From Rhabdothermincola salaria (lineage in GTDB: Bacteria; Actinomycetota; Acidimicrobiia; Acidimicrobiales; Acidimicrobilacustridaceae): 64,000 bases of DNA. The stretch lies in the NCBI RefSeq assembly GCF_021246445.1, contig NZ_JAJQXW010000001.1:1816168-1880167 (forward strand), in the 5' to 3' direction. Of the stretch, positions 7,862 through 12,184 are shown piece after piece; positions within the stretch are counted from its first letter, which is position 1, and each line of letters begins with the position of its first letter. Below the pieces are notes generated by a model. The model did not search any database and was not told the DNA's origin. It saw nothing but the letters and a program-made list of their open reading frames with translations. The position numbers and the translations under genes were made by a program.

Positions 7862-8545
7862 TCAGGCCAGGGTGACGGTGGCTCCGACCGCCACCACCAC
7901 GACGGCGAGGTCGCCGACCACGGTGGCCACCCGGGCCCACGAGGCCCGGGCCTGGAGGCGGCGGTGGAAGACCACGAGGGCGTCGGGGTCGTGCACCCCC
8001 CGGGCGGCCAGGATCGCCAGGCCGCGCACCAGACCGAAGGTCAGCCCGATCAGGCCCCCCAGCAGCCACGAACCCGACAGCAGGCAGGTCACGAAGACCA
8101 CGTAGACGAGCCCAGCGGTGACGATGGTGGTGAGTCCGGCACCGAGCTGGAGGCCGAACCCGCCGCCGTAGACCCAGCCCCGGTAGGAGGTCATCCAGTC
8201 CTCGTTGACCTGCCGGCCGTAGCGGGGCAGGGGCAGCCGACCCCCGGAGGCGTCGGCCGCGAGCGCACCGAGCGCCACCACGCCCACGACGACGGCGACG
8301 GCCACCTCTCCGATCCAGGCCACCAGCGGGGTGCCCACCAGGCCCAGGAGCGCGCCGAGCAGGGCGCCGCCGAGCGCCGACCCGAGGATGTGGGCGGTGA
8401 CGGTCAACCACCACCGTTGGGCTCGTCCCCGCTCACCGAGCGGAGTGATGCTCGAGAGCATCGACTCCCCTCAGGGCGACCACGTGGAGCGGATGGCCCC
8501 GATGACGGCCGAGACCAGGCCGACGACGACCAGGGCGACGGGCAC
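7862..8545 (-). CDS. MauF-like (DsbD/CcdA-type) membrane protein, predicted selenoprotein with in-frame TGA at 8471-8473
   Basis: GTG 3 nt after upstream TAG gives MPVALVVVGLVSAVIGAIRSTWSP-(TGA)-GESMLSSITPLGE; MauF motif is STWSPCG; ORF track shows only 7862-8461. Confidence 0.8.
8427..8468 (-). promoter_or_regulatory. Candidate bacterial SECIS hairpins 3' of the in-frame UGA
   Basis: CUCCGCUC[GGU]GAGCGGGG with loop 33 nt after UGA; also GGAGU-C-GAUGCU[CUCG]AGCAUC-ACUCC immediately after UGA. Confidence 0.55.
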
Positions 8546-8548
8546 GGC

Positions 8549-9442
8549 CTACGGCAAGGGCGCGTCGCGGGCGTCGGGCCCGGCGGCGGCGTCGTCGTCG
8601 TCTCCGTCGGCGGGATCGTCGTCGGCGATCAGCTGGCTGGGATAGAGGCTGGGGTGGCCGGGGCCGATGCCGGCGGCGCGCAGGTCGCGGTCGGCCCGGG
8701 CGGTGCGCTCCGGGCCGGTGAGGCGGCCGGCGGGGGCCGAGCGGTGCAGCGACGAGCCGTCCACGTCGTGGCCGGCGTCGGCCGCGGCCTGACCCAGGAG
8801 GTTGGCCACCTGGGCCCAGGTGGCCGCCGCCCCTTCGCCGAGCACGGCTCCCGAGGGGCCGTCGACGAGGATGAAGTAGGGGTTGGCCGGCACGCCGTAC
8901 TCGTCGTACGCCGCACTCGACATGAGGGTGGTGACCCCCGTCGGGGCCAGGCCGGCCACCGCGCTCACGCTCTCGGCCTCGGGACCCTTGGTGACGACCA
9001 CCAGGCGGGTGTCGCGCCCGGGCAGTCGGGTGCCCTCGCCGTCGGCGAAGGCCTGCCAGAAGTCGGCGCAGGTGCCACAGCCGCTCGACAGGAACGCCAA
9101 CAAGGTGGTGTGGTCGGTGCCGACCACCCCCGCCACCGTGGCCGCCCCGTCGGGGGTGACGCCGGCGATGTCGTGGGCGTCGGTGCTCACCACGCCGGTC
9201 TGCGATCGCGGCTCGGGCACCCCGGGTCGGGTGCGGATCTCGACCGGAGAGCGCACCCCTCCCGTGGTGGACCCGGTGCCCGACGGGTCGGTGGGGTCGG
9301 CGCCGTCGGCACTCTCGTCGTAGATGCCGGCCCCGAGCTCGTGGAGGCGGCGCAGGATCTCGGCGTGGCTGCGCAGCAGCCCGACGACGAGCACCGCGAG
9401 GAGGGCCACCACGAGGGCCAACAGCACCACGACGACGGTCAC
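8549..9442 (-). CDS. MauD-like membrane-anchored thioredoxin-fold protein
   Basis: N-terminal TM, LLAFLSSGCGTC (CxxC), YGVPANPYFILVDG cis-Pro region; GTGA overlap with upstream stop. Confidence 0.82.
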   Translation of the reverse strand: MTVVVVLLALVVALLAVLVVGLLRSHAEILRRLHELGAGIYDESADGADPTDPSGTGSTTGGVRSPVEIRTRPGVPEPRSQTGVVSTDAHDIAGVTPDGAATVAGVVGTDHTTLLAFLSSGCGTCADFWQAFADGEGTRLPGRDTRLVVVTKGPEAESVSAVAGLAPTGVTTLMSSAAYDEYGVPANPYFILVDGPSGAVLGEGAAATWAQVANLLGQAAADAGHDVDGSSLHRSAPAGRLTGPERTARADRDLRAAGIGPGHPSLYPSQLIADDDPADGDDDDAAAGPDARDAPLP

Positions 9443-11595
9443 GAGACCCTCACCGAGCGGCAGGCCAGGAGCACGTTGTCGCCCCGGCCGCGGTTGATCA
9501 GGTACACGCAGACCGTCCGGGACCCGCGAGACGCCCCGACCGTGACGTCGAAGCCGTGTGACGGCCCGTACAGGGGATGGGCGGCGCCGACGTCGCTGCG
9601 GTTCTTCGATGCCGTGGCGACTCCCGCGCCGACACCGTCGACGTACACGTGCACGTCGATCGGTCCCGCGGTGTCGGGGTCGATGGCCCAGCCCTGCAGC
9701 CGGATGGTGCCGGACCCCCCTCTTGCCACGTCGAGAGACCCGAACGGCGAGCCGCCCACCAACACCGATCGACATCCGATCAGGCTGTTCGAACCGGGGC
9801 CGAGGTTGATGCCGTAGGCGCACACCGTCCGGAGCCCGGAGGAGGCCGGCAGCTCGGCCGAGAAGCCCCGCGCCGACCCGTACCCCGGGTAGGCCGCAGC
9901 CACGTCGGAGCGCCGGCGATCGGCCCGCAGGACGTGGCCGACGCCGTCGACGTACACGTGCACGTCGACGGGGTCGGAGCTGTCGGGGTCGAGGAGCCAA
10001 CCGGCGACGGCGATCTTGCCCGGTCCGGCGCGCACGACGTCGAGGGCACCGAAGGGTGCCCCGGAGAGCACGTTGACGGGCCGCACGGCGATCAAGGCGT
10101 TGGGGCCGGGGCGATCGTTGATGGCGTAGGCGACCAGCTCGTGGCTGCCCGGTGGGGCCGGCACCACGACATCGAAACCGTGGTTGGTGGAAGGGCTGGT
10201 CGAGCTCAGCGCGGGTCGGGGATCGTCGGCGAGCACCGCCAGGCCCTTGCCGGCCACGTAGAGGTGGACCTGGATGGGATCGGTGGTGTCGGGATCGCGC
10301 GCCCAGCCCCGCACCCGCAACCCACCCGGAGCCGGATCGACGCGCTCGACCGTCCCGATCGGGGTTCCCACTTCGATCGTCCGCGACCCGAGCAGCACGT
10401 TGCCCGACCCGCCCCCGACGTTGATGGCGTAGACGTCGACCCGGTGACGCCCCTGCGGGACGTCGATCGTGACCCGGAAGCCGTGGTCGGCGCCCATGCC
10501 GAAGGCGACGTCGAGGTCCGCACGGCGCCGGTCGGCGCGCACCGCCACGCCCTTGCCGGCCACGTACACGTGCACGTCGATGGGGTTCGTGGTGTCGGGA
10601 TCGATCGCCCACCCCTCGACGGTGACCTTGCCCGTTCCGACGGTCACGTTGTCGATGACCCCGAAGGGGTTGCGGCTCACGACGGTGCGGCAACCGATGA
10701 TGCCGTCGGAACCCGGGCCGATGTTGACCGCGACGGCGCAGACCTGGCGCTGGCCGCCCTGGGAGCCGGGCAGGACGACATCGAACCCGTGGTTGGGGCC
10801 CATGCCCGGGTGGGCGGCGGCGATGTCGGACCGAGGGCGGTCGGCGCGCACCACGGCGACGACCTCGCTGTTCATGATGAGCCGGACGTCGACGGAGGCG
10901 TTGGTGTCCCAGTCGATGGCCCACCCCTTGACGCGGATGCCCCCCGAGACCTCGGTGGCGGAGTCGATCTGGCCGGTCACCCCGTGCAGGCAGGAGCGGT
11001 CGTGGGTGGCGGTGGCGTTGTCGACGCGGATGGTGCCGGTGCAGGTGCCGTCGATCTCCCACGGCGCGATGCACGTGACGAGCCGGCAGATGATCGGACC
11101 CACGCACGCCACACCCTGGTTGCACTGGCCGTAGCGGAAGTTGGTGCAGCCGGCCTTGCGGTTGTTGCAGTCGCCGTTGGCGCACCCGCACCCGGTGCCC
11201 GAGCAGGAACCGCTGCACACGCCGCTGCCGCCGCACCCGCAGCCGTTGCAGGGCGCGTTGCAGTCCATGTAGTAGCGGGGGCCGCTGCAGAACCCGGTGC
11301 CGTCGACCTTCCACCAACCGGCGAGCAGCGAACCCGGAGGGCACTGGTTGCGACCGGTGAGGGTGCAGCAGAACTCGGTGTAGCCGTCGCAGCACAACGA
11401 GCCGCACGCGCAGGCCTGCCCCTGGCACGAGCACACCGCGGCGTAGGCGTCGGTGGGGGTGAGGGCATAGGAGACGGGATTGGCGGCGATGGCCGAGCCG
11501 ACCACCGCGCTGCGGGCGAAGAAGCCGCGGCGGCCCATTCGGGCGGAGAGGGCGCCGGCGACCTTGTCGACCAGCGTCGTGGTGGCACGGCTCAT
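9439..11595 (-). CDS. Tat-exported Cys-rich MauA-like domain fused to five ~100-aa beta-rich surface repeats
   Basis: GRRGFF Tat motif and AYA cleavage site; 26 Cys in ~150 aa including CCDG, CPPG..GWW, YYMDC; 5x GWxxDxD..HVYV..RxD..HGF repeats. Confidence 0.8.
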   Translation of the reverse strand: MSRATTTLVDKVAGALSARMGRRGFFARSAVVGSAIAANPVSYALTPTDAYAAVCSCQGQACACGSLCCDGYTEFCCTLTGRNQCPPGSLLAGWWKVDGTGFCSGPRYYMDCNAPCNGCGCGGSGVCSGSCSGTGCGCANGDCNNRKAGCTNFRYGQCNQGVACVGPIICRLVTCIAPWEIDGTCTGTIRVDNATATHDRSCLHGVTGQIDSATEVSGGIRVKGWAIDWDTNASVDVRLIMNSEVVAVVRADRPRSDIAAAHPGMGPNHGFDVVLPGSQGGQRQVCAVAVNIGPGSDGIIGCRTVVSRNPFGVIDNVTVGTGKVTVEGWAIDPDTTNPIDVHVYVAGKGVAVRADRRRADLDVAFGMGADHGFRVTIDVPQGRHRVDVYAINVGGGSGNVLLGSRTIEVGTPIGTVERVDPAPGGLRVRGWARDPDTTDPIQVHLYVAGKGLAVLADDPRPALSSTSPSTNHGFDVVVPAPPGSHELVAYAINDRPGPNALIAVRPVNVLSGAPFGALDVVRAGPGKIAVAGWLLDPDSSDPVDVHVYVDGVGHVLRADRRRSDVAAAYPGYGSARGFSAELPASSGLRTVCAYGINLGPGSNSLIGCRSVLVGGSPFGSLDVARGGSGTIRLQGWAIDPDTAGPIDVHVYVDGVGAGVATASKNRSDVGAAHPLYGPSHGFDVTVGASRGSRTVCVYLINRGRGDNVLLACRSVRVS

Positions 11596-11605
11596 GACGG
11601 TCGGC

Positions 11606-12184
11606 TCATGTGAGGGGGGCCTCCACGGAGAAGGAGCGAACGGGTCGGCCGGTCCCGGCGGAGCCGGGGGTGCGGCGGGCGGCGACGAGCGCCTCGGGCA
11701 GGGCGGTGAGCAGGGCGACCCCGAGGCCCACGGCGACGAACGACACCGACAGGTAGGCGACGCCGGCGGCGGGCAGGTCGGGGCGCATCTCGATGAAGCC
11801 CGGCGCCCCGGTGACCGCGGCGGAGACGGCGACGAGGGCGGCCGCCCCGTCGACGACGGCGTGCACCAGGGTGGGCGGGGCCGACGAGGCCCCGAAGCAG
11901 CCACAGGAGACGGCCGCCTCGCCCGCGGCACGCAGGCGCAGCACCGAGCCGGTGAAGACCACGAACAGCACCGCGGTGGCGGCCGCCAGCCACGGGCCGC
12001 CGAACAGGTAGGTGGCGACCCCGATGGCCACCTCGGCGGCGCCGAGGAGCCGGGCCAGGGCGGGTCGGGCGGGCAGGCGCAGGGCCTCGAGCATGGGCAC
12101 GGTGGCGGCCGGGGCGCGCAGCTTGGCCATCCCTCCCACGGCGAGAACGCCGGCCACGACCCCCAAGAGGCCTCCGAGCACCAC
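11606..12184 (-). CDS. mauE: MauE/DoxX-family redox membrane protein
   Basis: GMAKL, AAE, CGCFG motif, several TM helices; TACCAT -10 8 nt before GTG 12184 (alternative start 12220). Confidence 0.88.
   Translation of the reverse strand: MVLGGLLGVVAGVLAVGGMAKLRAPAATVPMLEALRLPARPALARLLGAAEVAIGVATYLFGGPWLAAATAVLFVVFTGSVLRLRAAGEAAVSCGCFGASSAPPTLVHAVVDGAAALVAVSAAVTGAPGFIEMRPDLPAAGVAYLSVSFVAVGLGVALLTALPEALVAARRTPGSAGTGRPVRSFSVEAPLT

Follow-up and report, generated by a model that had tools for sequence, protein, structure and literature searches.

How is an in-frame UGA codon recoded as selenocysteine (Sec) when the probable Sec insertion sequence (SECIS) lies some distance downstream and a second hairpin stands between the two? 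The question is raised by a gene in the 64,000-nucleotide (nt) stretch of Rhabdothermincola salaria DNA analyzed here (contig NZ_JAJQXW010000001.1, forward-strand positions 1,816,168 to 1,880,167; hereafter the window, to whose numbering the coordinates below refer). The gene occupies 7862..8545 on the minus strand, with a GTG start at 8545, the UGA as codon 25 (8471..8473) and a TGA stop at 7864-7862, and its product has 227 amino acids (aa). The initial annotation had placed two overlapping hairpins after this UGA, one of them (B) as a SECIS candidate bound by SelB and the other (A) as a stem that hides an internal AUG and could compete with B. Comparison of homologous loci leads us to favor, on balance, a bipartite recoding signal, in which hairpin B would be the SECIS and the upper part of hairpin A an accessory helix.

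The UGA at 8473-8471 is almost certainly decoded as Sec by the SelB system of the host, to judge from the following sequence comparisons. The genome encodes a tRNA-Sec with anticodon UCA (70.6 bits) as well as selD, and its selA adjoins selB. Translation past the UGA gives a hydrophobic helix at the N terminus followed by RSTWSP-U-GESMLSSITPLGER, the Sec motif of the protein being RSTWSP-U-GESML. Six-frame protein searches were positive in 59 of 201 genomes of the same order and in 84 of 301 genomes of the class, each count including one unpublished genome that was left out afterwards. The codon aligned with the UGA is TGA in 35 and TGT or TGC in 15 of 50 loci of the order, and TGA in 42 and a Cys codon in 4 of 46 additional loci aligned at the class level; because the class-level loci were fetched only from rows flagged as TGA-bearing, the resulting 77 TGA-containing to 19 TGT- or TGC-containing homologs is not a frequency. 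TGA is retained at this one codon across 77 genomes from many families, and in alignments of 50 and of 58 sequences the UGA position is the sole conserved Cys/Sec column of the protein family. In databases the Sec forms are present only as entries of 197-200 aa that begin at an internal AUG and are named hypothetical, TauE/SafE-like or MFS proteins, mostly from Acidimicrobiales; such fragments are without the first helix and without the only conserved reactive residue of the protein, which matters for annotation.

On the minus strand, hairpin A in its full form runs through GGAGU (8468-8464), C (8463), GAUGCU (8462-8457), the loop CUCG (8456-8453), AGCAUC (8452-8447) and ACUCC (8446-8442), and takes in the in-frame AUG at 8461-8459. 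Hairpin B (8427..8445, minus strand) consists of CUCCGCUC (8445-8438), the loop GGU (8437-8435) and GAGCGGGG (8434-8427), with a core UCCGCUC [GGU] GAGCGGG at 8444-8428 and, in the window, an eighth pair, 8445-8427. The positions first given for the UGA and for both hairpins proved exact throughout. The conserved part of A, GAUGCU [CUCG] AGCAUC (8447..8462), is a helix of 6 bp that starts 8 nt past the UGA and carries its loop 14 nt past it; the lower stem, in which the 5' arm GGAGU (8464..8468) pairs with the 3' arm ACUCC (8442..8446), is specific to the window, and its 3' arm overlaps the base of hairpin B. The stem of B starts 26 nt and its loop 33 nt past the UGA (8470-8438), and the latter distance is invariant in 77 of 77 Sec forms, as follows from their alignment without gaps.

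Taken alone, thermodynamics is weak evidence at this G+C content, and the case for the hairpins rests on comparison instead. The energies in the window are -7.2 kcal/mol for the upper stem of A and -10.2 (7 bp) or -12.9 (8 bp) kcal/mol for B. A 71-nt fold has z = -1.90 relative to dinucleotide shuffles, 14 of 200 of which equalled it, and among synonymous resamples the upper stem of A was matched by 377 of 5000, B by 442 of 5000 and both together by 34 of 5000. Full-length hairpin A was matched by none of 2000 synonymous resamples, an unusual stability that is in part due to the rare Thr codon ACT in its 3' arm (136 of ~15,900 Thr codons in the long open reading frames of the genome).

Comparison is far more informative. 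Among the 77 Sec forms of the main family (76 distinct, ungapped), the upper stem of A (columns 21-26 with 31-36) is paired in 99.6% of cells over the distinct sequences, with five one-sided changes to G-U and two broken cells, and hairpin B (columns 39-45 with 49-55) is paired in 97.2%, with double changes in 20 cells at 39-55 (12), 42-52 (2), 43-51 (3) and 45-49 (3). None of 500 shuffles equalled the observed pairing, the covariation score or the count of doubly changed cells, and when the partners are slid by 1-3 columns the pairing falls to 35-48%. Some compensations in B cross amino-acid changes, as when CUC..GAG becomes UUC..GAA (Leu to Phe) or CUG..CAG is found (Glu to Gln), and from the alignment alone RNAalifold recovers the upper stem of A together with the top four pairs of B. 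A longer hairpin joining GAG (columns 16-18) to CUC (columns 43-45) was rejected; the UUC/GAA and CUG/CAG changes covary with columns 49-51 instead.

The Cys forms provide the control. In 15 of the 19, the columns of A are 62% and those of B 58% paired, no better than shuffles, and mean energies in Sec versus Cys forms are -7.2 versus -0.2 kcal/mol for A and -11.5 versus -1.0 kcal/mol for B, with mean pair probabilities (A/B) of 0.63/0.79 in Sec forms versus 0.01/0.00 in Cys forms. The same division appears at synonymous sites when 35 Sec forms are set beside 15 Cys forms: in the Sec forms third codon positions within the stems are fixed (G at column 21 and C at column 33 in 35/35 each, C at column 45 in 34/35, and G at columns 42 and 54 in 33/35 each), whereas those in loops and linkers (columns 15, 27, 30, 48, 57 and 60) vary freely, and in the Cys forms all of these positions, stem and loop alike, are variable. 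We regard the comparative evidence as decisive that, on these alignments, the hairpins go beyond chance.

A distant Sec paralog, here called subfamily 2, has been sampled in 11 sequences (loci L151-L154, L156, L206-L209, L211 and L212). Its protein is longer, at about 400 aa, with an extra C-terminal domain, and its motif is RSLWSP-U-GLSV(A/T)ETV.PSVRG, encoded by entirely different nucleotides and with no AUG after the UGA. A proximal hairpin of 15 nt, CGGUC[5 nt]GACCG (columns 20-24 with 30-34), starts 7 nt past the UGA, and the loop of a distal hairpin, CCCUC(G)[GUG/GUC]..GGGGG, lies 32-33 nt past it. RNAalifold recovers both helices, the basal pair 39-55 of the distal one being doubly changed in six cells, and 1 of 500 shuffles equalled the covariation score. 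At three pairs of the proximal helix both sides have changed; in L212 this helix is rebuilt as GCGUG/CACGC with a sixth G-C pair and a different peptide, and L152 swaps one pair. A proximal helix that is fixed in place and size, and not in sequence, in two subfamilies points to a part of the recoding signal rather than to an AUG-hiding device, and it is likely, given these alignments, that hairpin A belongs to that signal. In both subfamilies RNAalifold also pairs the CC of the Pro codon with the GG of the Gly codon (8470-8476 in the window; columns 7-8 with 13-14), which would place N-U-G-A in a loop of 4 nt; since the peptide keeps these two codons constant in the Cys forms as well, the pairing speaks neither for nor against such a loop.

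Hairpin B is very probably the SECIS proper, i.e. the SelB site, as judged from its loop, its stem and its place. The bacterial SECIS (bSECIS) model of Zhang and Gladyshev, as summarized in section 5 of PMC13188914, has a loop of 3-9 nt, a stem of 4-16 bp, a G within the first two loop positions, usually as G followed by G or U, a UGA-to-loop spacing of 16-37 nt and an energy of at most -7.5 kcal/mol. Hairpin B agrees with all four constraints, having a 3-nt loop on a stem of 7 conserved bp (8 in the window), the loop sequence G[G/U]N in 77/77 Sec forms (GGU, GGG, GGC, GGA, GUC or GUG), and a spacing of 33 nt and an energy that also lie within the limits. The context agrees as well, with a UGA that aligns with Cys in a genome that has selA, selB, selC and selD. 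Together with its covariation and its restriction to UGA forms, these properties uphold the first proposal that B is a SECIS. B shares with the bSECIS consensus an in-frame stem-loop after the Sec-UGA, a GG loop, 7-8 bp and an energy of about -10 kcal/mol, and differs from it in that the spacing is at the long end and the gap is filled by a second conserved helix, which is absent from the model. The SECIS of Escherichia coli fdhF, as described in passages of PMC8659212, has an upper stem-loop of 17 nt placed 11 nt from the UGA, in which U17 is bulged and the loop carries G23/U24. Hairpin B likewise is a small coding-region hairpin past the UGA with G and U in its loop, but its stem starts at 26 rather than 11 nt, it has no bulged U and its loop is of 3 nt, so that it does not fit the minimal criteria of the fdhF type as given in those passages; the lower-stem region of the fdhF element is replaced here by a separate hairpin. 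The Rfam covariance models, which include SECIS, gave no match at E up to 10 on either strand of 8300-8600.

Other selenoprotein genes of the same genomes offer an independent comparison; their hairpins should be targets of the same SelB. The genome has three, which encode a UGSC protein (NF041046, 154 bits), a ResA-like WAxxUGC protein (NF041054) and a PrdB/GrdB-like protein; all lie outside the window, at G000 C1:1335636 (plus strand, UGSC, L069), C1:803854 (minus strand, ResA-like, L070) and C1:775960 (plus strand, PrdB-like, L068). Orthologs were taken from 34 genomes carrying the Sec form. The UGSC element is UCGUGCA[GUG]UGCACGA with its loop 19 nt past the UGA; the ResA-like one is CUGCC[loop]GGCAG, with a loop of CGGGU, GGUCU, CGUGU or AGGUU at 20 nt; the PrdB-like one is GCGUAC[CGUGA]GUACGC at 17 nt, and its paralogs have AUCAGUCC[GUG]GGGCUGAU at 18 nt. 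Each of the three shows compensatory changes in orthologs or paralogs. In common with B they have short stems and loops of 3-5 nt that contain G[G/U] (GUG, GUC, CGGGU, GGUCU, CGUGA), from which it appears that the SelB of this clade recognizes short helices with such loops, a kind that B fits and A does not. They differ from B in spacing: their loops lie 17-21 nt past the UGA, with no space for an intervening helix, whereas that of B lies at 33 nt with a 16-nt hairpin between. Genome scans for more selenoprotein genes, using G+C at third codon positions (GC3) and hairpin filters, returned only the three known families and false positives, the latter including the candidates L071 (two genes) and L072 (no family); these scans were rough, one GC3/hairpin filter having also missed the selenoprotein gene of the window itself.

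What, then, would an accessory helix do? In the mechanism that we propose, SelB would bind the G-G loop of hairpin B, and hairpin A, starting 8 nt past the UGA, could stay folded at the mRNA entrance of the ribosome while the UGA is in the A site. Counted from the first base of the P site, the mRNA channel and the helicase extend about 11-13 nt downstream, and on this geometry the stem of A begins just outside a ribosome that has the UGA in its A site. Folding of A would remove 16 nt from the path, leaving 8+2+7 = 17 nt instead of 33 between the UGA and the loop of B, and the corresponding path in subfamily 2 would be 7+4+6 or 7, i.e. 17-18 nt. A role of A as a spacer is preferred because the folded path equals the spacing of the single-hairpin SECIS elements of the clade, although we hold this specific role only tentatively, as somewhat less probable than its opposite. 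The peptide P-L-G-E-R may offer a SECIS-capable sequence ten codons after Sec, and the helix over S-M-L-x-S-I would then remove the excess length.

A second possible role, which we consider unlikely though deserving of attention, is that A acts as a kinetic roadblock 7-8 nt past the UGA, at the mRNA entrance of the ribosome; it would slow the ribosome or disfavor release factor 2 in the manner of a Sec codon redefinition element (SRE), and SelB on hairpin B would thereby gain time for delivery of Sec-tRNA. Such a role accords with B as the SECIS. Elements that stimulate read-through in viruses are located about 8 nt past the stop codon, and A begins 8 nt, and the proximal hairpin of subfamily 2 7 nt, past the UGA; moreover, the loop of A is free and only its helix is conserved, and as a conserved stem-loop a few nt past the Sec-UGA and separate from the SECIS, A occupies the position of an SRE. 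According to passages of PMC4561486, in which Howard et al. 2005 and 2007 are cited for the SREs of SEPN1 and SPS2, stem-loops by the UGA promote recoding and enhance Sec insertion together with a SECIS. On that description A and the SREs have in common a stem-loop right past the UGA, a distinct and distant SECIS and conservation that is independent of the loop; SREs, however, are eukaryotic and work with a SECIS in the 3' untranslated region read by SBP2; there is no sign of homology, and the likeness would be a functional one. As a roadblock A would be weak, with 6 bp and about -7 kcal/mol, and no such helix accompanies the three other SECIS elements of the clade. To our knowledge, there is no bacterial example of an SRE-like roadblock helix. 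The present data do not separate the spacer from the kinetic role, and the two may act jointly.

Less probable by a clear step, and best described as doubtful, is the model of the initial annotation, in which B binds SelB, A hides the GGAG and the AUG at 8461 against re-initiation, and A and B switch over 8445-8442. In 76 of the 77 Sec forms the AUG does lie within the conserved stem of A, the remaining one having GUG there, A is absent from the Cys forms, in which no stop precedes the AUG, the long form of A in the window has the stability and the rare ACT codon described above, and gene callers start the gene at the internal AUG. The lower stem, however, is not conserved: its five pairs (8468-8464 with 8446-8442) are formed in 15, 74, 19, 17 and 42 of 76 sequences, a level equalled by 449 to 467 of 500 shuffles and no different in the 35-sequence set, and the pair kept in 74 is made up of two columns that are invariant in any case. 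Only 37 of the 77 Sec forms contain GGAG, which ends just 3 nt before the AUG. On the ribosome geometry given above, the lower stem would lie within the ribosome and be melted during UGA decoding, which casts further doubt on a switch. The Met codon is as conserved in the Cys forms (13/15), which lack A, as in the Sec forms, and the paralogous subfamily retains its proximal hairpin without any AUG. Of hairpin A as first described, the upper 6 bp with the AUG are real and conserved, whereas the extended lower stem is, on the alignments, a local accident of the window; the proposed A/B switch, which depends on that overlapping, GGAG-pairing stem, is likewise not conserved and is not supported. 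The block to re-initiation is weakened, with the AUG inside A speaking for it and the Cys forms and the paralog against.

It is also improbable, and more so than the foregoing, that A is the SelB-binding element and B accessory or unrelated. The loop of A, at 14 nt past the UGA, is nearer than 33 nt to the E. coli layout and to the 17-21 nt of the clade, and A is the more invariant helix of the two; its loop, however, varies in sequence, G[G/U] occurring in just 34 of 77 Sec forms and G being absent from 5 of 77, and in the window A departs from three of the four bSECIS constraints (loop CUCG, 14 nt, -7.2 kcal/mol), whereas the loop of B matches the loops of the other clade SECIS elements in 77/77. 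That the stems have no RNA function, being a product of the conserved peptide (SMLSSI.PLGER) and codon bias in a G+C-rich coding sequence that folds readily and has an ordinary minimum free energy in the window, or that the TGA is a true stop in a broken gene, is barely credible, since the Cys forms keep a near-identical peptide (SMLST..P.GE) and not the stems, synonymous sites are fixed only within the stems, the compensations in B include coupled amino-acid changes (CUG..CAG, UUC..GAA) and 77 genomes, drawn from many families, share the TGA at this single codon.

The bipartite signal thus remains the explanation that we favor, and several points weigh against it. The 60 nt after the UGA are not thermodynamically unusual (z = -0.64 relative to 2000 synonymous resamples drawn from the codon usage of the genome), and in isolation hairpins A and B of the window have a predicted probability of only ~0.44 each. 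In the main family the A stem has no doubly compensated pair, only the five G-U changes, so that its support at the RNA level comes from the fixation of synonymous sites and its absence from Cys forms. The sequences are related, and the counts given here therefore overstate their independence; subfamily 2 is represented in its alignment by just 11 sequences, with L212 the source of most of the double changes. The argument from a 17-nt path is post hoc, draws on three other families and assumes that a folded hairpin adds little length, and the 33-nt spacing of B already lies inside the range of 16-37 nt, such that a helper may be unneeded. Finally, A does hide the AUG (or the single GUG) in all 77 Sec forms and may have an anti-initiation role in the main subfamily.

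The protein itself is predicted to be a multi-helix membrane protein. An AlphaFold (AF2) model built with the 58-sequence alignment is a helical membrane bundle of high predicted quality (predicted local distance difference test 95.2, predicted template modeling score 0.91). Pfam DsbD_2 (PF13386) scores below threshold (16-20 bits against a cut-off of 24.9, E 0.00056-0.01), the best Foldseek match for the model is CcdA (E 0.046, TM-score 0.35), VIA-align gives generic helical-bundle matches only (Z at most 6.6) and a search of solved-structure sequences with the family profile returned only chance-level GAPDH rows (E at least 0.14). CcdA and DsbD use two conserved redox cysteines in separate membrane helices. 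With the CcdA and DsbD_2 membrane thiol-disulfide electron transporters (PF13386; PDB 5vkv), toward which the weak Pfam and Foldseek matches both lean, the present family shares a multi-helix membrane architecture and a reactive Cys or Sec after a Pro near the first helix, and a CxxC protein gene is its neighbor, whereas it has one conserved Cys/Sec only, the two-cysteine feature being absent from the 50 and 58 sequences aligned. Further conserved motifs are RQV(N/D)E..W, WVY, GxGxQxG and FGxxR. A role in thiol/selenol redox chemistry or chalcogen handling is at most a reasonable guess.

Directly upstream on the minus strand, at 8549..9442, lies the gene of a membrane-anchored CGTC (CxxC) protein, possibly thioredoxin-like, with a weak MauD match only (E 0.005, far below cut-off) and no Pfam match. 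In 33 of 35 Sec-form loci a homolog of this gene immediately precedes the selenoprotein gene; of 15 Cys-form loci, 2 have one inside the 1.5-kb flank. In the window the TAG stop of the CxxC gene is 3 nt before the GTG of the selenoprotein gene, and the GTG of the CxxC gene overlaps the stop of the preceding gene (GTGA); the three minus-strand genes look translationally coupled (9439-9442, 8543-8551). The preceding gene (9442-11931, minus strand) encodes a protein of 830 aa that is Cys-rich toward its N terminus, contains about five repeats of ~100 aa and has no Pfam match, and a Pfam search with three neighboring proteins gave no matches.

Three further observations concern the protein family. 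The residue two after Sec (8465-8467 in the window), included in neither of the conserved helices, is Glu in 73 of the 77 Sec forms, whereas the residue two after Cys in the first 15 Cys forms aligned is Leu, Trp, Val or Gln; the Glu may reflect a need of the selenol at the protein level or an effect of RNA or codon context. Measured from 22 codons before the Sec or Cys to the stop, Sec forms have 215-230 aa and Cys forms 249-290 aa, the latter with an extra C-terminal tail. One locus, L155 (G157:C175), encodes a more distant membrane protein with the motif ..QQTIP-U-GPNAV.. and has an in-frame TGA at the equivalent place.

The family appears to be uncatalogued. NCBIfam, including its selenoprotein models, gave no match to the protein at E up to 1, and the same library does recognize the UGSC and WAxxUGC genes of the genome. 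Table 1 of the 2026 review PMC13188914, with 119 selenoprotein families, has no entry with this motif or domain, and the passages searched of the deep-Sep and BSepDB papers make no mention of DsbD, TauE or membrane proteins. An Actinomarina preprint (10.64898/2026.04.03.716425) describes a selenoprotein, predicted by deep-Sep in 49 genomes, that matches K07090; a relation to the family studied here is possible. In one family of 65 genomes there was no match to the protein at E 1e-15 or better. In the literature searched, the coverage of which was limited, no description of a two-helix bacterial SECIS was found.

Bacterial SECIS elements are regarded as single hairpins, and bSECISearch and similar finders permit spacings of 16-37 nt, a range that is left unexplained. 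Here the stems are fixed and the loops free, the Cys forms are without the helices and a paralog rebuilds the same layout, which together speak for an accessory second helix in the recoding signal. In its most complete form the proposal is that a proximal, sequence-independent helix 7-8 nt past the UGA is required, as a spacer or as a hold on the ribosome, together with a distal SelB hairpin whose loop lies at ~33 nt, and that an uncatalogued membrane selenoprotein has retained this layout in two paralogous subfamilies across the class Acidimicrobiia; we would put the chances of this joint claim as evenly balanced. Should this hold, bacteria would have their first counterpart of the eukaryotic arrangement of SRE plus SECIS, and part of the tail of long spacings, to 37 nt, that bSECIS search models allow would be explained. 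The comparative pattern also opens to direct test the question of how SelB gets from a remote SECIS to the ribosome.

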